Shown here: positions 4,695 through 15,125 of the stretch, piece after piece
How positions within the stretch are numbered: position 1 is the stretch's first letter
Layout of the letters: every line of letters starts with the position of its first letter
Assembly (NCBI GenBank): GCA_963841435.1
Contig: CAWJCS010000005.1
Coordinates: 992,001 to 1,056,000 of the forward strand
DNA length: 64,000 bases
Origin: an uncultured delta proteobacterium
GTDB lineage: Bacteria; Myxococcota_A; Polyangia; Polyangiales; Polyangiaceae
Reading direction: 5' to 3'
Notes under the pieces: model-generated
Told to the model about the DNA's origin: nothing
Databases searched by the model: none
Seen by the model: the letters and a program-made list of their open reading frames with translations, nothing else
Program-made: the position numbers and the translations under genes

Positions 4695-5504
4695 TCAGAT
4701 CTCGGTGAGCCAGCTCGTGAGCAGGTAGTTCGCAACGAGTGTCGTCACGGCGCTCAGCACGACGGCGCGCGTCGTCGCCTCGCCGACGCCCTTGGCGCCG
4801 CCGCTCGCATAAAACCCCTGCGCGCAGGAGATCGCCGAGATCAAAAATCCGAAGACCAGGGCCTTGATCTCACCCATGTAAAGGTCGCTCGGCACGAGGT
4901 ACTTCTCGATGTTGGCGAGGAAGATGCCGGGGTCCACGCCGAGCCAGTTCACGCTCACCACCCAGGCTCCCATCATGCCCACACAGCTGTACAGAATGCA
5001 GAGCAGCGGAAGCATGAGGACGCTCGCGAGCAGCCGCGGCGCCAACAGGTATTGAGCGGGGCTCACGCCCATCGTCACGAGCGCGTCGATCTGCTCGGTG
5101 ACGCGCATGTTGCCGAGCTCGGCGGCCATGGCGCTGCCCGCGCGCGCCGTCACCATCAAGGCAGCGAACACCGGGCTGATCTCGCGACACAGGGAAACGG
5201 CGACGATCGAGCCCACCACGCCCTCGGCGCCGAACTGTCGCAAACTGTGCACCGTCTGCAGCGAGAGCACCATGCCGCTGAACATGCCGGTCAGCGAGAT
5301 GATGAAGATCGATTTGACGCCGATGAAGTCCATCGCCAAAAAGAGCTGCATGAGCCGGTAGGGGGGCCGCACGGCCCACGCAAGCGTCTGGCCCGTTAGG
5401 AGCAGCACGGTTCCTATCCGATCGAGCAACGAGAGGAACGGGGCCGCGAGGAGCGCGAAAAAGCCGGTGTCGTCGTCGGAAAGCGCGTCCTCGTCGGCTG
5501 CCAC
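4695..5504 (-). CDS. mlaE: MlaE family ABC transporter permease
   Basis: REISPVFAALMVTARAGSAMAAELGNMRVTEQIDAL and GGAKGVGEATTRAVV. Confidence 0.93.
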   Translation of the reverse strand: MAADEDALSDDDTGFFALLAAPFLSLLDRIGTVLLLTGQTLAWAVRPPYRLMQLFLAMDFIGVKSIFIISLTGMFSGMVLSLQTVHSLRQFGAEGVVGSIVAVSLCREISPVFAALMVTARAGSAMAAELGNMRVTEQIDALVTMGVSPAQYLLAPRLLASVLMLPLLCILYSCVGMMGAWVVSVNWLGVDPGIFLANIEKYLVPSDLYMGEIKALVFGFLISAISCAQGFYASGGAKGVGEATTRAVVLSAVTTLVANYLLTSWLTEI

Positions 5505-5614
5505 GCGTCGGTCTTACCAGCCCGACGAGCGGGCACCAAACCGTTCTCCCCGCTCGCGGGCCTCGCGCGTGGCTATGAGACGCCTCGCGGGCTCGCCCGG
5601 TTGCGAGATGCGCT

Positions 5615-6070
5615 CTAGCCTGCCGCGAGCGCCCGGAGGACTGCCGTCGAGCGCTCGCCGGTCGCGCGCACGCGGGCGCGGCGCGGATCGAGGGCGAGCT
5701 CGACAATCAGCGCGTCACCGCCGAGCACGCCGACGTACGGCTCGCCCCATTCGACGACGAGCAGGCGACCGTCGTCGCGCTGGGCGTCGAGGCCGAGCCC
5801 GCGCACGTCGCGTTCGTCACGCAGCCGGTAAAGATCGGCGTGCGACACGGGCGGCTCGGTTTCGTGCTCGTGGACGAGGGTGAAGGTGGGGCTCGGCACG
5901 CGCACCCGCGCCGGCAGGCCGAGTGCTCGGCAGAGCGCACGCGCGAGGAACGTCTTGCCGCTGCCGAGCGGGCCGCTCAGGACGACGAGGTCGCCGGCCG
6001 CGAGCTCGGGCGCGAGCCGGCGCGCCAGGTCGCGCGTCGCGCGCCGCGTGGGCAGCTCCACTTCAATCAT
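5615..6070 (-). CDS. tsaE: tRNA threonylcarbamoyladenosine biosynthesis ATPase TsaE
   Basis: Starts MIEVELPT at ATG 6070, overlapping the upstream stop; GPLGSGKT, SPTFTLVHEH, HADLYRL, VVEWGE. Confidence 0.93.
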   Translation of the reverse strand: MIEVELPTRRATRDLARRLAPELAAGDLVVLSGPLGSGKTFLARALCRALGLPARVRVPSPTFTLVHEHETEPPVSHADLYRLRDERDVRGLGLDAQRDDGRLLVVEWGEPYVGVLGGDALIVELALDPRRARVRATGERSTAVLRALAAG

Positions 6071-7854
6071 GGCGCGGCGGGCTCCCCCAGAACCACGCCG
6101 AGGTGCCGTGGCAAAACGCGCGCGCCGCCGAACCCGCGCGCGGAGCTGGTCCAGAGCTCCGCCTTCGCGGTCGCGAGCGCGTCGCGCGCGCGGCTGCGAA
6201 GCGCTTCCACGTCCTCGCCGCGAGCGACCCCGTTCGTGGGCAGCGCCTCGAGCGCGAGCGCCGCGAGCACTGCCGCGTCGTGCCCGAGCGCTTCGTACCA
6301 GCCGCCCGTGGGGGCCTTCGCGGGGTAGCTCCCCGTTTCGATCGCCAGGGCTCTCGCACCGAGCTCCGGCAGCACCGCGCTCGCGTCCAGTCCGAGCGCC
6401 ATCGACCAGCCGAGGCTCCCCGCAGAAAGCTCCGTCGAGATGTCGCGCGCGCACTGCTCGCCGCCCGTGACGAGAAGGGCGTCGACGCCCGTCTTCTTCC
6501 AGGTTCCGAGCGGAAAGCGCGCGCGCCCGGGCGAGGCCGGCTCGACATCGCACGAGAAGCCGCCGGGACCCACCCGCTCGACGTGGTGCGCGCCGCGCTG
6601 GGCCAGCGCCTCCTCGAGCGCATCGGCGACGGTTCGATCGTCGAGACCGAGCACGAAGGTAAAGCCGTGCTCCGGCGGCGGCGACGGCAGCGCGCGCAGC
6701 AAAAGCAGCGGGATGCCGAGCGTCTCGGCCTGGGCAGCCGCTCGCGCCGCGCTCTCGTCGTCACCACCCGCAACGATGAGGCTCGCGCCGTCTGCCGTGA
6801 GCGCCGAGAACGCGGCGGGCACGTCGTCGGTGCCGTAGCGCACGAGCAGCTCCACGCGCCGATCTCCCCGATTCTTCGTCGCGCCGAGCGCTCGTGTCAT
6901 GCCTTCGCTCACCGTCGTCGCGCGGCGGCGCTCGAGCGAGGTCCCGATGCCGAGCAAAAGACCCACGGCACGCCCCGCCACCGACGGCGCGCGCAATCCG
7001 CTCGACGCGAGCTCGACGAGGCGGCGCCCGTCCGGAGTGCCGCGAAGCGCTGCGGGGGCGACCTCGAGCAGGCGCTGCGCGAGCGGCGAGGCCGAGCGCT
7101 CGAGCGCCGCGCGCGTGAGCGCCGTCACGATGGTGTCGACGAGCCATTCCCGCCCGCTCGCGAGATCCTGGCGCGAACCGGAAACCTGCCTGAGCCCCGG
7201 GAGGGCAGCGAGCAGGTCGTCGGTCGGCACGAGCCCAATGAGCTTGGCCGCCGTCTGCCGCGCGCGCACCTGCCGGTCCGGCGGAGATTGCACGAGCCAA
7301 TCGAGCAGCGCAGTGAGCGCGACTTCGTAGTTGCCCGAGAGAAAGGCGGTGCGCGCCCGCTCCTCTCCGTACACGAAGCGCTCGTCGAGATCGATGATGC
7401 GTCCGCTCAGCGCGTCGAACACCGCCAGCGCACGGCGCGTCTCCCCCTCACGCGACAAGATCGCGGCTTCGGCGACGCGCGCGAAATCCCGCTGCGAGCC
7501 TCGGGGGCCATGAAGGATGGGCGCGATGAGCTCTCGAGCGCGCGCCCGCTCGCCGCGCTCGAGCAGCGCGAACGCGCTGTAGATGCGCACGTCGTCGGCT
7601 CGCTCGTCTTTGGGGTTGCGCGCGAGGAAGCCCTCGAGCTCGGCGGCAAGGGACGCGCGCCCGGCTGCGTCGGCGTCGAAGAAGCGCGCCCGGAGAGCTC
7701 GAAACTCCGTCTGCGGCCCCGTCGCGCCAGACAGCGACGCTTCGAGCGGCGGCGGCCGAGAGTCCGACGCGCAGGCGACCGAAAGCGTTAACGGAAGGGC
7801 CAGGACGGCGAGGGAGACCAGGGGCGGGCGAGGCACGGTGCGCGACACGGTCAT
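6067..7854 (-). CDS. Lipoprotein with TPR-like N-terminus and periplasmic-binding-protein-like C-terminus (LpoA-like)
   Basis: Lipobox SVAC, helical repeats, then AVGLLL...WYEALGHDAA, which resembles type I PBP/LpoA folds. Confidence 0.55.
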   Translation of the reverse strand: MTVSRTVPRPPLVSLAVLALPLTLSVACASDSRPPPLEASLSGATGPQTEFRALRARFFDADAAGRASLAAELEGFLARNPKDERADDVRIYSAFALLERGERARARELIAPILHGPRGSQRDFARVAEAAILSREGETRRALAVFDALSGRIIDLDERFVYGEERARTAFLSGNYEVALTALLDWLVQSPPDRQVRARQTAAKLIGLVPTDDLLAALPGLRQVSGSRQDLASGREWLVDTIVTALTRAALERSASPLAQRLLEVAPAALRGTPDGRRLVELASSGLRAPSVAGRAVGLLLGIGTSLERRRATTVSEGMTRALGATKNRGDRRVELLVRYGTDDVPAAFSALTADGASLIVAGGDDESAARAAAQAETLGIPLLLLRALPSPPPEHGFTFVLGLDDRTVADALEEALAQRGAHHVERVGPGGFSCDVEPASPGRARFPLGTWKKTGVDALLVTGGEQCARDISTELSAGSLGWSMALGLDASAVLPELGARALAIETGSYPAKAPTGGWYEALGHDAAVLAALALEALPTNGVARGEDVEALRSRARDALATAKAELWTSSARGFGGARVLPRHLGVVLGEPAAP

Positions 7855-9757: not shown

Positions 9758-10549
9758 ATGCTCGTTTCCTGCCTCGCCGTCCTTCTCTTCGCGGGCTCCG
9801 CGCTCGCTGCGGGGCGCGTGCAATGGAAGAGTAAATCCTTCAAGGAGCGCAGCGACAAGGCGTGGATGCTGGAGCTTGCCATCTACCTGCCGCGCGCCCC
9901 GGACGTAGCGTACGTTCCGATGAAGTTCGAGTTCGAGCTCATCACCTACTTCGAGCGCGCTCTGCTCGACGGTCACGACGGCCCCGTGGAAAACAAGACG
10001 CCCATCAACGGCCGGCAACCGCTGATCGAGAGCGTGGACGTGGGCTTCATGGACGCGAGCACCTCGAACATCGAGAAGCGAACGCGCTTCAGCTTCAAGG
10101 TGAAGCGCGACCTCGGCTACGAGGCCGGCGAGTACAAGGTGACGATCCGCGACACGCGCAACGGGCAGGTCGTGGGCTCTCCGACGACCATCACGTTCGA
10201 CGGCGAGAACAACGTCATCAATCGGCGCTCGATCGTGTTCCAGGGCGACGACGGCAAGAAGAAGAAGAAGAAGGACAAGCCGAAGGACGAGGGCGCCTCC
10301 GACGACGAGAACAAGGACAGCGCCTCGGCTGACTCCGAGAAGAAGTCCGACGAAGGTTCGGGCGAGGGCTCGGACGACGGGGCGAGCGACGAAGGCTCGG
10401 ACAACTCCGGCGGTGACGACCCCCCGCCCGTCGAGAAGAAGAGCGGCTGCGGTTGCCGCGTGCCCGGCTCGCCGGGGTCAAAGGCTCCGGGCGGCGTGCT
10501 CGCGCTCGGCCTGGCGGCGGCGTTCCTCGCGCGTCGGCGGACTCGCTAG
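9758..10549 (+). CDS. MYXO-CTERM-sorted surface protein
   Basis: Signal h-region, acidic linker and C-terminal KSGCGCRVPG...LALGLAAAFLARRR. The true start may be TTG 9725 (see findings). Confidence 0.85.
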   Translation: MLVSCLAVLLFAGSALAAGRVQWKSKSFKERSDKAWMLELAIYLPRAPDVAYVPMKFEFELITYFERALLDGHDGPVENKTPINGRQPLIESVDVGFMDASTSNIEKRTRFSFKVKRDLGYEAGEYKVTIRDTRNGQVVGSPTTITFDGENNVINRRSIVFQGDDGKKKKKKDKPKDEGASDDENKDSASADSEKKSDEGSGEGSDDGASDEGSDNSGGDDPPPVEKKSGCGCRVPGSPGSKAPGGVLALGLAAAFLARRRTR

Positions 10550-10609: not shown

Positions 10610-11363
10610 ATGATTCCGATCAGCGACGACAACCCGACGCTCCGTTTTCCACTCGTGACGACCGGGCTGCTCGTCGCGCTCGGCGCGGTCTGGGTGCTCG
10701 TCCAGGGCGCCGGGTTCAGCGAGGCCGCGCTGAGCGCGAGCGTTTGCAACCTCGGCCTCGTGCCGGGAGAGCTCACGAAGCTCGCCCCGCTCGGCACCGC
10801 CATCCCGCTCGATCGTTCGCACGTCTGCGTCGTCAACAACGAGGCCATCAACGTGCTGACGCCCCTCACGTCGATGTTCCTGCACGGTAGCTGGGGTCAC
10901 CTGCTCGGCAACGCGCTGTTTCTGTGGGTCTTCGGCAACAACGTCGAGGACAGCATGGGGCGCTCTCGCTTCCTGGTCTTTTACCTGGTGTGCGGGCTCG
11001 CGGCCGCGGCGGCGCAGGTCGCGATGTCGCCCGCGTCGCCCGTGCCGATGGTCGGAGCTTCGGGGGCCATCTCCGGCGTGCTCGGCGGCTACCTCGTGCT
11101 CTATCCGCGCGTCAGGGTGAACATCCTCTTCATCCTCATCATCTTCATTCGCGTCATCAAGCTACCGGCCTACCTGGTGCTGCTCTGGTGGATCGGCCTT
11201 CAGCTCCTGACTGCGACGTTCCGGCGTCGAGTCCGGCGTCGCCGTCTGGGCGCACATCGGGGGGTTCGCTGCCGGGCTCGTCCTCGTCAAGTTCTTCGAA
11301 AATCCCGCGCTCGTCCACGAGCGCGATCGCGTCCGGCACCGCCTGCATCCCGGCTATCCCTGA
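10610..11363 (+). pseudogene. Rhomboid intramembrane serine protease, frameshifted near 11210-11225 (real lesion or sequence error)
   Basis: Frame 1 has MIPISDDNP, SMFLHGSWGHLLGN and GASGAI. The catalytic-His segment GVAVWAHIGGFAAG...HPGYP* is in the +1 frame, with stop at 11361-11363. Confidence 0.85.
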
Positions 11364-11387
11364 AGCGCGCCCAGGCGCGCCCCCCGG

Positions 11388-12620
11388 TCACTCCGTGAGG
11401 TGCATCCACGTTTCGCAGTCGAAGGCGGGAGCGTTTGGGTCCTTCGCCGAGGGCAGGAAGATGCGCCCCGGTGCTTCGCCGATAGGCGGAATCGAGTGGC
11501 AGGCGCCGCAATTGCCGGCGGGGGGCGGGCAGGGCATCTCGATGCGCTCGCCCCGATACTCGAGGGCCACGCGAAAGCCCTCTGGGAGCGGCGTGAGGGT
11601 GTAAAAGTTGCCGACGGCGTTCGTCGTCAGCTTCTCGACGAGCATCTCGTCGGGTGCCATCAGCATCACACTCACGCCGGGCACGCCCTGGCTCGTGGCC
11701 GCGTCGCGTGAGGGAAAGACGGTGCCGGCCGCGCTCCAGCGAGGGGCCGTGGGGTACTCCGAGTGCTCGGCGTGGCAGCGCAGGCAGTCGTCGCCGGGCT
11801 GCATCGTCGGGCCCACCATGAAGCCGAAATCGTCCTTGGCGTCGCTCGCGCAACCGGTCGCGAGCGACGCGAGCGCCATCAGTGCCACGACCCAGCGCTG
11901 CCTCACCCAGCGCGACACGGCCTCTGCCGCCCGCGCGACGGCGTCCGGCTCGCGAAACGACTCGCACACCTCGTCGAAGGAGGCACCGCGCGCGGCTCGT
12001 TCGAGGGCCACGGCTTCGTCCTCGGACAGCGGCTCGTGCGTGACGCCGAAGCGCCGCCGCCACACGGCCACCGCGATGCGCCGTGTTTTGCCGGCGCCGC
12101 TCGCCGGATCGCGAAATAGCTCGAGCGCGCGCTCGGACACTTCGAGCCGCCTGAGGTCCGGCGAAAGGGCGAGCCGCTTCGACGGCGCGTCCGGCTCCGC
12201 AAAGTCCTCCGCGCGCGCCGCGGACTCCGCATCGGGCGCGATCAGCGCATCGAGCCGCGCCCACTCGAGCCGTGCCAGGTCGATGATTGCATCCCCGGGG
12301 CGCTCGGCGTCGGGAAGCTCGGCGAGAAATGCCGCGAAGCGTTCGCCCACCCGTTCGATGGCGGGCGAGCGCGACGGGTGACGCATGAGGTACCCGACGC
12401 CGAGCGTCTCGAAGCGTTCGGCTCCGACGCACTCGACGACGCGCTCGAACGTCTCCCGCAGCACGCCGAGCTTGCGCGTCACGAGCGCCGAGCGATAGAT
12501 ACCGAGCCGCTCGGCGGCCGTGAGGCGACCGCCCGAAACGACGTGCTCCTCGGGAGCCGGGGGCGGCTCGGACGCGTGCAGCGTCTCCCAGAGCCACGTT
12601 TCACGCTGCGAAAGTCGCAC
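11388..12620 (-). CDS. DUF2063 (BufC/HvfC-type MNIO partner) fused in frame to a lipobox and a diheme cytochrome c domain
   Basis: ERLGIYR...RETF...YLMRHPSRS...GERFAAFL...DLARLEWA, then VVALMALASLATGC, CLRCH and CGACH with no intervening stop. Confidence 0.85.
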   Translation of the reverse strand: MRLSQRETWLWETLHASEPPPAPEEHVVSGGRLTAAERLGIYRSALVTRKLGVLRETFERVVECVGAERFETLGVGYLMRHPSRSPAIERVGERFAAFLAELPDAERPGDAIIDLARLEWARLDALIAPDAESAARAEDFAEPDAPSKRLALSPDLRRLEVSERALELFRDPASGAGKTRRIAVAVWRRRFGVTHEPLSEDEAVALERAARGASFDEVCESFREPDAVARAAEAVSRWVRQRWVVALMALASLATGCASDAKDDFGFMVGPTMQPGDDCLRCHAEHSEYPTAPRWSAAGTVFPSRDAATSQGVPGVSVMLMAPDEMLVEKLTTNAVGNFYTLTPLPEGFRVALEYRGERIEMPCPPPAGNCGACHSIPPIGEAPGRIFLPSAKDPNAPAFDCETWMHLTE

Positions 12621-13434
12621 CCAGCACCTCGCTTTCCACCGCCTTTACCCGCTCCATTTCCTGCTCGAGCTCCTCGAGGGTCGGCACGTTGTCGTCCCAC
12701 TCGACGATCGCCGGCACGCGACCGAAGCGCCTGAGCACGTGCCGGTAGAGCTCCATGACGGCGTCCGGGACGCGCGAACCGTGGTCGTCGATCGCGTGGG
12801 TTCCGTGGTCGGTGTGGCCGGCGAGATGAAGCTGGCGCACCCGCTCGACGGGCAGCGTCGCGACGAAATCGGTGGGCGAGAGCCCGTGGTTCTTGGCGTT
12901 GACGATCACGTTGTTCACGTCGAGGAGAATGAAGCAGTCCGCGCGCTCGGCGACGGCGCCGAGAAACGCCGCTTCACCGAGCTCGTTTTCCGGGAACTCG
13001 AGATAAGTCGAGACGTTCTCGACGAGGATGCGCTCACCCAGACGGTCCTGGACCCTCTGGATGCGCGCTGCCACGTGCACGAGCGCCTCCTCCGTGCGCG
13101 GCAACGGCCAGAGATCGTGGGCGTAGTGGCCGCGCTCGGTGCCGAAGCACAAATGATCCGAGACGAAGGCCGCGTCGATGCTCCGCCGCAACCGCGCGAG
13201 CTCGTCGAGGTAGCCGTCATTCAGGGGATCGACACCCCCGAGCGACAGGGAGACTCCGTGCAACGCCACGTCGGAGTCGCGGCGCACGCGTTCCAAAACG
13301 GCGCGAGGCCGTCCGCCTCGCCAAAGGAAGTTCTCCGTCACCACCTCGACGAGCCCGGCGGGCGAGCCGCGCTCGAGGAGCTCGGTGTAGTGGGGCACCC
13401 TCAGGCCGTAGCCATGGTGCCCGCCGTCCCGCAT
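12601..13434 (-). CDS. DUF692 family multinuclear non-heme iron oxidative enzyme (MNIO; BufB/HvfB/MbnB/TglH family)
   Basis: GLRVPHY, LHGVSLSLGG, SDHLCF, VENVSTY, LLDVNNVIVN, LHLAGH, IDDH, EWDD; the ATG overlaps the precursor stop (TGATG). Confidence 0.95.
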   Translation of the reverse strand: MRDGGHHGYGLRVPHYTELLERGSPAGLVEVVTENFLWRGGRPRAVLERVRRDSDVALHGVSLSLGGVDPLNDGYLDELARLRRSIDAAFVSDHLCFGTERGHYAHDLWPLPRTEEALVHVAARIQRVQDRLGERILVENVSTYLEFPENELGEAAFLGAVAERADCFILLDVNNVIVNAKNHGLSPTDFVATLPVERVRQLHLAGHTDHGTHAIDDHGSRVPDAVMELYRHVLRRFGRVPAIVEWDDNVPTLEELEQEMERVKAVESEVLGATFAA

Positions 13435-13709
13435 CAGCTCTGAACCGTACCGCCGAGCGCCTCGCAATCGGCCGCGGTCTTCGTGTAGGCCCAGCCCATG
13501 CCCATGCACTCGTTCAAGCCCTTGCACTCGTTGCTGCTCGGACCGCCGGCGCACTCGCTCATGCCGGCGCACTCGTTGCCGCCCAGGCACTTGACCTGCT
13601 GCGCAGCGGTGCCCGTGGGCTCGTCATCGCTGCCAGAACAACCCGTCATGACCAAAAGGCCTGCCACCGCGGCCGCGACGGCCGCACCCTTTCGGAGCTC
13701 TCGATGCAT
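13434..13709 (-). CDS. Cys-rich RiPP precursor lipoprotein (bufferin BufA2-like)
   Basis: Lipobox MTGC24; core KCLGGNECAGMSECAGGPSSNECKGLNECMGMGW...DCEALGG; directly upstream of and coupled to DUF692. Confidence 0.85.
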   Translation of the reverse strand: MHRELRKGAAVAAAVAGLLVMTGCSGSDDEPTGTAAQQVKCLGGNECAGMSECAGGPSSNECKGLNECMGMGWAYTKTAADCEALGGTVQS

Positions 13710-13737
13710 GGTGAACCTGCTTTGGATGCCGGGATCG

Positions 13738-13805
13738 CGAGCAGCGAAAGCGCTGCTCGAACCGACACCGCGCGTTCCCTATGGCAGCCGTTCGCGAGCG
13801 GTTAC
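13738..13805 (-). promoter_or_regulatory. Candidate ECF-sigma promoter GTAACC-N16-CATA and a perfect 9-bp 5'-UTR hairpin for the MNIO operon
   Basis: Minus strand: GTAACC at 13805-13800, CATA at 13783-13780; hairpin CGAGCAGCG-N4-CGCTGCTCG at 13738-13759. Confidence 0.4.
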
Positions 13806-13922
13806 CGGGGCGGCGACGAGTACCGCGTTTTCCTGCCAATCGAGCGGAATTGAAGCCAAATTCGGCGACGATTCCTGCGCGTGGCCGCCCGAGGGGCGGG
13901 GCCGGCCCCCGTTACGCGGTGC

Positions 13923-15125
13923 TCACGCGCGGCTGACCTGCTCGACGATCACCCCGATGGCCCGTTCGAGCACGTCTTCGGGCGTGAGCAGGCTCACGAC
14001 GGCATGCGGCGGACCGATGAAATCGAAGAAATACCCCGGCTGCACGAGGACCCCCTTCGCGAGGAAAAGGAGCGACCACTCCTCGTCGCTCAGGGTCGCG
14101 GGCAAGCGCAACACGGCATACCAGCCGCCCTCGACAGGCAGCACCGAGATCGGAGACCCCGCGCACGCCGCGGCGAGTTGGGCGACGTTTCGCGCGGAGC
14201 GCGCGCGGATGGCGTCCCGCGCGGTGCCCCGCGACGCGAGCAGGGCCGGCAGGGCGCGCTGCACGGCCGTCCCCGGCGAAAGAAACGTGTCGGCAACGAC
14301 CTCGAGCCGGGCGAGCGCTTGCTCGACGAGGGGGGCTTCGCCGCCGAGCGTCATCCAGGCAAGCTTTGCCTGCGGCAGCGCCGCCACCTTGGAGAGCCCG
14401 TCGAGCGCCACCGTCAGGAGCCCCGCTGATTCGAGCGCGGATTTCGCGCGCCGCGGGTCGTCGCCGAGCGCGTACTCGCCGAATACCTCGTCGGAGATCA
14501 ACGGCAGACCGAGCGCGCCGAGGCGTTCGAGCCCGGCTCGGTCGAGGAAGCTGCCCGTGGGGTTGTTCGGGCTCACCACGACGATGGCGCGGGCGCGTGG
14601 GGTGCGGACGCGCTCGACCTCCGCTACGTCGAGAAACCAGGCGCCGTCGAAGCCCAGGCGGTACGTCATCGGCGTGACGCCCTCGAGGCGCGCGAGATGC
14701 TCGAACAGCGGATAGCTCGGCGCCGGCACGAGCACCTCGTCGCCCGGGTCGCAGAAGAGCTTGAACGCGTAGGCGTACGCTTCGCTCGTGCTCGCCGTGA
14801 GCACCACGTGCCCGGGGTCCACGGCGAGACCGCGCTCGCGCCACAGCGTCGCCACGGCGTCGCGCGCCGTCGCGAGCCCGAACGGCGCCGGCTCGTACGC
14901 GAGGTCCGTCGCGGCCTCGGCGAGCGCAACGCGCGTGGCCTGGGCGTACGGGATGCCTGCCTCGGTGGGATTGGACACCGTGAGATCCGAGAGCGGTAAA
15001 GCGCGCCCTCGCGCGGCGGCGAGCGCGACCGCGAGGCGATTGGGAGCGAGCTCGACGGCGCTCCGTTGCGAAAACGGGCCCGTTTCAGCAGCGGGCGGGG
15101 GTGCCCCGCGGTCGGAACGCGTCAC
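13923..15125 (-). CDS. PLP-dependent aminotransferase, class I/II
   Basis: DLTVSNPT, TASTSEAY, PSYPLF, SPNNPTG, ISDEVF, GLSK (PLP Lys), VQPGYFF. Confidence 0.9.
   Translation of the reverse strand: MTRSDRGAPPPAAETGPFSQRSAVELAPNRLAVALAAARGRALPLSDLTVSNPTEAGIPYAQATRVALAEAATDLAYEPAPFGLATARDAVATLWRERGLAVDPGHVVLTASTSEAYAYAFKLFCDPGDEVLVPAPSYPLFEHLARLEGVTPMTYRLGFDGAWFLDVAEVERVRTPRARAIVVVSPNNPTGSFLDRAGLERLGALGLPLISDEVFGEYALGDDPRRAKSALESAGLLTVALDGLSKVAALPQAKLAWMTLGGEAPLVEQALARLEVVADTFLSPGTAVQRALPALLASRGTARDAIRARSARNVAQLAAACAGSPISVLPVEGGWYAVLRLPATLSDEEWSLLFLAKGVLVQPGYFFDFIGPPHAVVSLLTPEDVLERAIGVIVEQVSRA

Follow-up and report, generated by a model that had tools for sequence, protein, structure and literature searches.

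Fusion of the bufferin maturase partner BufC to a predicted exported, probably dihaem, domain in an uncultured member of the Polyangiaceae

We analysed a 64,000-nucleotide stretch of DNA (the window; contig CAWJCS010000005.1, positions 992,001 to 1,056,000) from an uncultured delta proteobacterium of the Polyangiaceae and investigated the last gene of the bufferin-2 operon on its minus strand. Bufferins, copper-binding peptides described only recently, form a large family, and the passages of PMC11626156 and PMC12452194 that deal with their machinery name BufA, BufB and BufC together with an optional DoxX. The operon and the BufC half of the gene are of known kinds; what is new is that the partner protein continues in frame, through a segment resembling a lipoprotein signal, into a predicted exported domain that is probably a His/Met dihaem c-type cytochrome of an uncharacterised family. 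Sequence comparisons confirmed that this fusion is genuine and conserved, and a single gene appears to act on either side of the inner membrane. The features of the fused gene are as follows.

11388..12620, minus strand: fused open reading frame (ORF), 410 aa, GTG start
11892..12620, minus strand: BufC part, residues 1-243, DUF2063 plus RRE-type domain, final helix ending ...AVSRWVRQRW
11853..11906, minus strand: signal-peptide-like segment, residues 239-256, with RQR as n-region, then 14 uncharged residues and, ahead of the Cys, the lipobox A-T-G
11850..11852, minus strand: lipobox Cys257, TGC codon
11391..11849, minus strand: predicted exported domain, residues 258-410, transthyretin-like beta-sandwich with two CxxCH motifs, M273 and M362
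11772-11786, minus strand: CLRCH, residues 279-283
11496-11510, minus strand: CGACH, residues 371-375

The fused reading frame and its relatives

The GTG start at 12620 is preceded by the Shine-Dalgarno-like motif GCGAGGTG, and the stop-to-stop frame comprises 418 aa with no internal stop. The initial annotation of this DNA had described a DUF2063 partner that reads without a stop into a cytochrome half, and the single ORF bears out this description. Base-by-base reading also placed an in-frame GTG at 11906-11904 (codon 239), the Cys codon at 11852-11850, and CLRCH and CGACH where the initial annotation had put them. The signal, given there as 19 aa, needed correction: 18 residues (MRQRWVVALMALASLATG) precede Cys257 when counted from GTG 11906.

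The DUF2063 identity of the first half was upheld by the family scan, in which the BufC part scored 53.9 bits against PF09836 (cut-off 27.2). The fused ORF scored 44.3 bits against the HvfC family NF050145 (cut-off 142); the BufC part is a relative, not a member, of that family. The AlphaFold2 model of the full-length protein gave a predicted local distance difference test score (pLDDT) of 91.2 and a predicted template modelling score (pTM) of 0.66, and its N-terminal half matched NGO1945 (3dee; E 3.9e-7, template modelling score 0.71 on the target) and TglI (8hi7_A; E 1.1e-5), both of which are MNIO partner proteins. BufC serves the MNIO enzyme BufB as its DUF2063/RRE partner in the cytoplasm. 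The 410-aa length of the whole protein lies outside the ~250-260 residue range of the stand-alone PME-type 1 and BufC partners, which are described in passages of PMC12452194 as soluble proteins of a narrow size (~250-260 aa).

We searched residues 239-410 against a collection of 5.8 billion proteins, grouped in clusters at 90% identity and with candidate lengths set by the whole protein, and obtained 23 matching proteins among 744 candidates. The BufC-plus-domain architecture was present in 15 of the 23, the window's own protein included, at lengths of 302-415 aa (three are N-terminally truncated). PF09836 was detected in 13 of the 14 other fused proteins, and the fourteenth, P0010, shows the C-terminal part of BufC in its sequence. 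The 15 fused proteins align end to end with 46-54% overall identity and 57-65% identity in the exported part, and no indel at the junction is larger than 2. Cys257, both CxxCH motifs, M273 and M362 are invariant in this alignment (A1), with W238 and W243 conserved in at least 90% of the sequences.

Representatives at 50% identity that carry the exported domain were searched exhaustively, and 20 of the 150 listed were scanned against Pfam. The domain family comprises 1193 representatives at E <= 1e-3, falling to 224 at 1e-10 and to 16 at 1e-30, most of them stand-alone proteins of 135-180 aa. At least three further fused representatives were found, namely P0033 (471 aa), P0035 (500 aa) and P0046 (458 aa), in each of which DUF2063 precedes the domain. 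Among BufC relatives of 427-2000 aa there was one match only, P0173 (511 aa, from a metagenome-assembled genome of the Gammaproteobacteria); it holds MNIO (PF05114) and DUF2063 (PF09836) in one protein and is a fusion of the BufB-BufC type.

We also scanned for the fused form 41 relatives, 47 genomes of the genus and 401 genomes taken as an even sample of the phylum Myxococcota; four candidates per genome were scored in the phylum sample, and the resulting counts are lower bounds. A one-frame match over residues 1-410 was found only in the window's own genome (G000). This restriction, and the fact that no sequencing run was found to cover the junction, would suit an error or a recent mutation that removed the bufC stop and left a fusion without function; only two runs, both from soil metagenomes, shared 6-7% of the sampled words, no RNA run was listed among the matches, and the contigs placed on the window were short pieces of relatives, none of them bridging 11850-11950. 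The fusion recurs, however, in 14 other protein clusters from independent metagenomes, with an open frame and a conserved junction, lipobox and CxxCH motifs, so that an assembly or sequencing error is unlikely to be its cause. Both halves are intact in the window, the full-length model reaching pLDDT 91, and we consider an artefact or a decaying gene extremely improbable.

Apparent in-frame matches of BufC, a stop and the cytochrome in G180 and G220 proved to be BufC only.

The exported domain

The conservation of the domain was determined from 95 homologous sequences, numbered from the lipobox Cys. G20, C26, H27, G43, G81, N82 and F83 are invariant, and M17, P19, C23, T44, M106, C115, C118, H119, G129 and R130 are kept in at least 90%. 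M17 and M106 are residues 273 and 362 of the fused protein, and one conserved Met stands upstream of each CxxCH. Met residues near the motifs had been put forward as possible axial ligands in the initial annotation, and M273 and M362, as candidate distal ligands, are near-invariant across the 95 domains.

AlphaFold2 predicted the domain as a confident beta-sandwich (pLDDT 91.4, pTM 0.86) with each CxxCH in a short helical turn. Foldseek gave no solved structure at E <= 1e-3. The best VIA-align score was Z 8.1, for the transthyretin-like domain of carboxypeptidase D; many sandwiches of this sort scored nearly as high, which is a generic level of similarity. A sequence profile search of the PDB gave nothing significant, the best match being SoxA (E 0.0033). 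Only 'hypothetical protein' clusters, mostly from Myxococcota, were found in the protein atlas.

The domain also occurs in other combinations. In P0110 it stands beside a bona fide cytochrome c (PF13442, 43.4 bits; PF00034, 37.2 bits; both above their cut-offs), and it is likewise combined with cytochrome c domains in P0107 and P0040, with Spondin_N in P0016-18, P0034 and L025, or with copies of itself. Taken together, the motifs point to a probable His/Met dihaem c-type cytochrome of an uncharacterised family. The initial annotation had named the domain a diheme cytochrome c; the part of this claim that draws on the CxxCH and Met residues stands as a reasonable inference, and its placement in a cytochrome family found neither a curated family above cut-off nor a matching structure.

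The Spondin_N proteins (L025 at 4950-6155 on the plus strand, P0016-P0018 and P0034) are lipoproteins of ~400 aa with an N-terminal two-CxxCH domain and a C-terminal Spondin_N domain (PF06468, 114 bits in P0034). In L025 the ORF list, in which the families of the neighbours were not searched, contains no bufferin-type ORF beside the Spondin_N lipoprotein gene. A paralogue from the window's own genome is encoded by the minus-strand ORF 1486-2487 of locus L002 (G000:C2:260970-264410); it is a lipoprotein-like protein of 320-odd aa with a third, N-terminal CxxCH (CVSCH) ahead of the two-CxxCH sandwich, and the gene directly before it is, we presume, of the DUF1552 type. Many domain matches were flagged as having one TGA inside, which had suggested selenocysteine; reading of L002 and L016 revealed a plain stop after GRIxLP that the alignment had overrun.

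The junction and the fate of the product

The hydrophobic core and the lipobox Cys correspond to residues 244-257 of the fused ORF. The features of a lipoprotein signal are present (a positive RQR, 14 uncharged residues and L-A-T-G-C) but lie inside the ORF, at residues 239-257; the segment would be N-terminal only if GTG 11906 were the start, and this codon is not conserved as a start. Across the 15 fused sequences Cys257 does not vary (A1), and in all 18 fused proteins the Cys is preceded by G, A or S at position -1, while the adjoining hydrophobic residues vary. Counted from the last charged residue up to the Cys, the median length of the uncharged stretch is 16 in the 18 fused proteins (range 11-21, the value of 11 arising from a wrong Cys picked in P0012) and 14 in 99 stand-alone signal peptides (range 10-22); 35 further stand-alone proteins without a lipobox-like Cys by the rule used lie outside this comparison. 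The stretch of the fused proteins is thus signal-peptide-like, with a length within the stand-alone range.

Stand-alone BufC proteins end 4-14 residues past the Trp equivalent to W243 (alignment A3 and the split loci), as in ...RAWFSRQWIEGIET, ...SRWFARGWVERVET and ...SSWFDRGWITQVATEGSPHATP, each followed by the stop. In the fused proteins the hydrophobic stretch begins straight after that Trp and aligns with the h-region of the N-terminal signal peptides of the stand-alone homologues (A3). The original Met and n-region of the signal peptide are lost in the fused forms, and the basic end of the last BufC helix (R-x-R-W) takes, to judge from the alignment, the role of the n-region. An identical junction is found in P0033 (GWFEQRW/IAVLV...AAC, the slash marking the junction) and P0046 (RWLRDGW/VASVA...VAC), and three separate fused lineages are joined at one place, directly after the conserved Trp. 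P0035 has a longer linker and keeps Met-Arg before the hydrophobic core. In the AlphaFold2 model of the window's protein, residues 258-269, just past the Cys, have pLDDT below 50.

The reading that we prefer, and to which we give a little less than an even chance, is that of one chain with N-in/C-out topology whose exported domain receives haem and is probably lipidated and cut by LspA. The fused ORF would be translated as a single 410-aa chain, the BufC part of which would fold in the cytoplasm. The R-x-R-W end of BufC and the 14 uncharged residues that follow would act as an internal N-in/C-out signal sequence, and residues 257-410 would be exported unfolded via Sec and would receive two c-type haems from Ccm. 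Lgt would then lipidate Cys257 and LspA would cut before it, giving two proteins in a 1:1 ratio from one gene. The first would be BufC with a short membrane tail, which would place BufB/BufC beside the translocon that exports BufA2; the second would be a lipid-anchored dihaem protein in the periplasm, probably serving electron transfer tied to copper or bufferin handling, which is the weakest step of the scheme. The attachment of c-type haem takes place in the periplasm. The window's genome encodes CcmH (49.1 bits) and CcmE (68.3 bits), and one LspA match and four Lgt matches above their cut-offs were found in it.

The retention of the Cys and of a small residue at -1 across independently fused lineages suggests that Lgt, and probably LspA, still act on the segment; this retention is hard to explain otherwise. 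Since the lipobox is present in 18 of 18 fused proteins, processing by signal peptidase II is favoured over a plain anchor. A more specific version of the scheme is somewhat less probable: a two-compartment polyprotein with an internal LspA-cut signal, in which the tail-anchored BufC couples thiooxazole installation by BufB/BufC to the Sec export of BufA2 and the periplasmic dihaem lipoprotein shuttles electrons to or from bufferin copper. After the cut, the freed hydrophobic tail might fold back onto the BufC domain as its final strand, the position it has in the AlphaFold2 model.

Several observations weigh against the scheme of export and cleavage. One is the rarity of the fused form among the reference genomes, where G000 alone has it. 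Another is that the literature search found no documented LspA cut of a signal that follows a cytoplasmic domain of ~240 residues. All matches of the exported domain to cytochrome families in Pfam and NCBIfam were below cut-off (Paired_CXXCH_1, 16 against 20.6; Cytochrome_C7, 14.4 against 24.8), and the motifs are the sole ground for haem binding. The slightly longer uncharged stretch of the fused proteins (16 against 14) also fits a permanent anchor. AlphaFold2 draws residues 244-248 (VVALM; 11877-11891) as a beta-strand on the BufC domain, in a block of pLDDT 88, and this strand occupies the position of the C-terminal residues of stand-alone BufC (A3); if folding depended on it, the hydrophobic segment might be kept from inserting into the membrane. 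The VVALM residues may have two alternative structural roles. Finally, some members might still initiate at V, L or I codons close to the junction.

A permanent bitopic protein, in which an uncleaved N-in/C-out anchor keeps BufC inside and the dihaem domain outside on one linked chain, with the Cys lipidated or not, shares its topology with our preferred scheme, and the conserved and recurrent fusion counts equally for both. Bitopic proteins with large N-terminal cytoplasmic domains are common, for example RseA, ToxR and CadC, and the longer uncharged stretch of the fused proteins (up to 18-21) would suit the requirements of an anchor. A Cys after G, A or S, however, is not required by an anchor, yet this arrangement is kept in 18 of 18 proteins across independently fused lineages, and 16 uncharged residues are short for a stable transmembrane helix. 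We regard this alternative as rather unlikely, though it comes nearest to the scheme of export and cleavage.

The two halves could also be expressed as a nested in-frame pair, the lipoprotein being translated from GTG 11906 or a nearby start and the read-through product being tolerated with its tail unexported. Counted from GTG 11906, the segment is a textbook n-h-c lipoprotein signal peptide; the packing of residues 244-248 onto the BufC domain by AlphaFold2 and the Met-Arg kept before the signal core in P0035 also agree with such a gene. At the codon of GTG 11906, however, 8 of the 15 fused sequences have I, 3 have L, 2 have V, and T and A occur once each, so that V or L stands there in only 5 of 15, and no conserved Met was found anywhere in the junction among them. 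Upstream of four in-frame candidate starts there is only weak Shine-Dalgarno-like pairing, of -5.8 to -6.7 kcal/mol; in the case of GTG 11906 and GTG 11888 it sits 11-12 nt upstream, which is badly spaced. This comparison spans the fused and split forms and gives no clear distinction; the start of bufA2 itself has only -4.9 kcal/mol, and strong Shine-Dalgarno motifs seem to be missing from many of the genome's genes, a point in favour of the nested reading. The nested-start evidence consists of the DNA of one fused gene, that of the window, and the protein sequences of the other fused members. A useless 170-residue tail would be expected to be lost by a stop, yet the open frame persists at ~50% divergence and arose repeatedly. 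A single polypeptide fits the evidence better than an internal start does, and a nested gene is in our estimate improbable; a similarly small share of the probability goes to explanations other than those named here. Of the three mechanisms offered in the initial annotation (a membrane anchor, a polyprotein cut by signal peptidase II and two in-frame products), the second is thus the one towards which the lipobox leans, and the evidence leans against the nested GTG as a general mechanism.

Bufferin-2 operon, split loci and known systems

The ORF list and the family scans gave a bufferin-2 operon on the minus strand in the canonical order bufA2, bufB and, last, the fused bufC ORF. The two genes upstream of the fused gene are as follows.

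13434..13709, minus strand: bufA2, bufferin-2 precursor of 91 aa, lipoprotein-type signal peptide (LLVMTG/C, Cys24), six core Cys conserved
12601..13434, minus strand: bufB, MNIO enzyme (bufferin maturase; PF05114, NF050167), longest ORF reaching 13590

BufB scored 319.7 bits against NF050167 (MNIO_BufB; cut-off 310) and 316 bits against PF05114. The MNIO domain starts at residue 59 of the 329-aa longest bufB ORF, and the likely start is ATG 13434, 52 codons downstream of the longest-ORF start at 13590. The bufA2 stop and this ATG share one base (TGATG, 13432-13436), and the bufC GTG at 12620 overlaps the 3' end of bufB by 20 nt; translation of the three genes seems to be coupled. A convergent rhomboid gene (10610-11398, plus strand) marks the end of the operon. 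The operon contains no DoxX gene, and a scan of 11200-14000 for promoters and terminators gave no site of either kind.

BufA2 scored 56.2 bits against NF050166 (E 2.9e-15), slightly short of the cut-off of 60 bits. In an alignment of 10 loci (A4), C24, C41, C47, C53, C62, C68 and C82 are invariant. The lipobox Cys (13638-13640) is thereby kept in 10 of 10 precursors, those of the window and of nine related Myxococcota loci, and the bufferin of this group would, by prediction, itself be lipid-anchored. According to a passage of PMC12452194, ~16% of Buf2 precursors carry lipoprotein signals. In the window locus and in L032, L035 and L036, which are the aligned loci with a domain gene, the bufferin and the exported domain are both predicted lipoproteins.

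A bufC gene followed by a separate and directly adjacent lipoprotein gene was found in 10 loci (L006, L009, L032, L033, L035, L036, L037, L042, L057 and L058; L006 is from genome G003, L009 from G026, L057 from G337 and L058 from G347), a biased sample in that 6 of the 10 came from a scan using the domain's own motifs. The bufC stop overlaps the candidate start of the lipoprotein gene in L006, L009, L032, L033 and L037, for example as CC-ATG-CTGA in L032 and L033, and the gap between them is ~35-45 nt in L035 and L036. In L037 the domain is split over two frames, and L042 has two domains in tandem. The stand-alone homologues carry their own N-terminal lipoprotein signal peptides. On this comparison, the fused gene is derived from the bufC gene and the following lipoprotein gene of related genomes.

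Nine loci (L007, L008, L010, L011, L044, L045, L047, L048 and L050) had no domain gene within the ~1.4 kb fetched downstream; eight of them show bufA2, bufB and bufC, and L010 shows bufB and bufC only, bufA lying outside the fetched stretch. Within the genus, a BufC match (E <= 1e-25) was obtained in 12 of 47 genomes and was linked to the domain only in G000 (fused) and G003 (adjacent). Judged by these gene orders, the cytochrome-like gene is an accessory of a subset of bufferin-2 operons and is tightly linked where present. The initial annotation had made its reading depend on a conserved linkage of this cytochrome to MNIO loci. When the halves were searched separately, they were fused in 14 other clusters and at least three representatives and adjacent in 10 loci, with nine loci lacking a nearby domain gene; the cytochrome-like gene is therefore fused or directly adjacent at MNIO/bufferin loci elsewhere.

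Scans for the DNA of other fused genes gave 7 loci in genome contigs and 11 in metagenome contigs. None of the six inspected metagenome loci with bufC and the domain (L032, L033, L035, L036, L037 and L042) was fused, the two lying in separate frames. Of the inspected genome-contig loci, L026 is the split locus of G003 and L025 encodes the Spondin_N lipoprotein. In the remaining loci of both contig scans the matches were limited to the exported part.

An extracytoplasmic function (ECF) sigma factor gene follows the cytochrome gene in two split loci, L006 (1859-3422) and L032 (5285-6701). In L006 the next gene encodes a multi-pass membrane protein with a Cys/His-rich N-terminus, which may be an anti-sigma factor. 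In the window, nothing of this kind comes after the fused gene. Sigma and anti-sigma genes are mentioned near buf1 operons in passages of PMC11626156 and PMC12452194.

We constructed two trees of the domain. The first, a maximum-likelihood tree, had 49 rows, five sequences without the trimming motif having been dropped. The 15 main fused sequences formed one group (Shimodaira-Hasegawa-like approximate likelihood ratio test 92) adjoining the adjacent forms L006, L032 and L033, whereas P0033 grouped with the stand-alone lipoproteins P0019 and P0020 (support 92; N-termini checked) and P0046 with P0037 and P0047 (support 99), P0047 being the product of the split locus L057. The fused state needed 4 changes on this tree, of which the starred branches force at least 2. 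The second tree had 42 rows; 16 of the earlier stand-alone rows were used, the long-branch rows and P0037 were left out, and L057 and L058 were added. It again needed 4 changes, at least 3 of them forced. The approximately unbiased test rejected all 18 fused rows as one clade (delta log likelihood 102.9, p 9e-55), where the trees are quick ones and the tested group was named after the first tree had been seen. By these trees, at least two or three changes of the fused state took place; be it by fusions or by fissions, bufC and the lipoprotein gene have been joined or split several times. Such repeated fusion of two genes, here two or three times at the least, is a classic indication that they share a function, and it points to a redox step in the periplasmic life of bufferins.

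The BufC and PME-type 1 partners (C. vibrioides BufC1 and BufC2; N. gonorrhoeae NGO1945, 3dee) resemble the window protein in the DUF2063 plus RRE-type fold, in the position of the gene after the MNIO gene and in the BufA2 precursor upstream. Unlike them, the window protein runs 167 residues further, via the lipoprotein signal, into the exported domain. The Myxococcota split pairs of the 10 loci have the same two proteins, order and operon, with exported parts that are 38-59% identical; they differ in having two genes, with a bufC stop 4-14 residues past the Trp and a lipoprotein with its own ATG and n-region. A comparable release of a c-type cytochrome at an internal signal sequence, the nearest precedent in mechanism that is known to us, is reported for FbcH of Bradyrhizobium japonicum, where one ORF is said to yield cytochrome b and cytochrome c1; the cut there is reportedly of the signal peptidase I type and the upstream half an integral membrane protein. 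The window protein, by contrast, has a signal of the lipoprotein (signal peptidase II) type, and its upstream half is a soluble protein of the cytoplasm that recognises RiPPs (peptides that are ribosomally synthesised and post-translationally modified).

Two systems in the literature link parts of this architecture. The DybA-type lipidated peptides combine an MNIO pathway with Lgt/LspA/Lnt, the lipoprotein signal being N-terminal on the precursor peptide (passages of PMC13056109). Like DybA, the window pairs an MNIO enzyme with a lipobox-bearing BufA2; unlike DybA, it has a second lipobox inside the partner ORF. Passages of PMC12452194 describe precursor fusions of Buf1 and Cytochrom_C, in which a cytochrome (PF00034) is placed on the exported precursor. 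Both these and the window link the bufferin system to a c-type cytochrome module, which in the window would be an unrelated beta-sandwich CxxCH domain on the cytoplasmic partner. The main-text passages of PMC12452194 on fusions, cytochromes and lipoproteins describe no partner protein that runs on into an exported domain, and no partner-cytochrome fusion was found among the literature matches listed for DUF2063, cytochrome c and lipoprotein.

A role of the domain in the bufferin system can be argued from its repeated fusion to BufC and its operon linkage. Buf1 binds Cu(II) as well as Cu(I), its affinity being far higher for Cu(I) (passages of PMC11626156), and a periplasmic electron carrier could therefore set the redox state of the copper or service the peptide. 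The probable dihaem lipoprotein, of an uncharacterised family, would be a new accessory component of the bufferin locus. The architecture also raises the questions of whether Lgt and LspA process a signal that follows a folded 240-residue cytoplasmic domain and whether RiPP modification is tethered to the translocon. If the protein were instead a true bitopic anchor, or the gene a nested one, the arrangement would still be a new one for MNIO partner domains, although of narrower interest.

Downstream of the operon, the convergent gene encodes a protease of the rhomboid family (PF01694, 100 bits) whose likeness to rhombosortases is weak (28 bits against a cut-off of 84). It lies 60 nt downstream of a plus-strand gene at 9758-10549, which encodes a 263-aa secreted protein with a lysine/acid-rich region and a C-terminal MYXO-CTERM (TIGR03901, 31.3 bits; cut-off 20).

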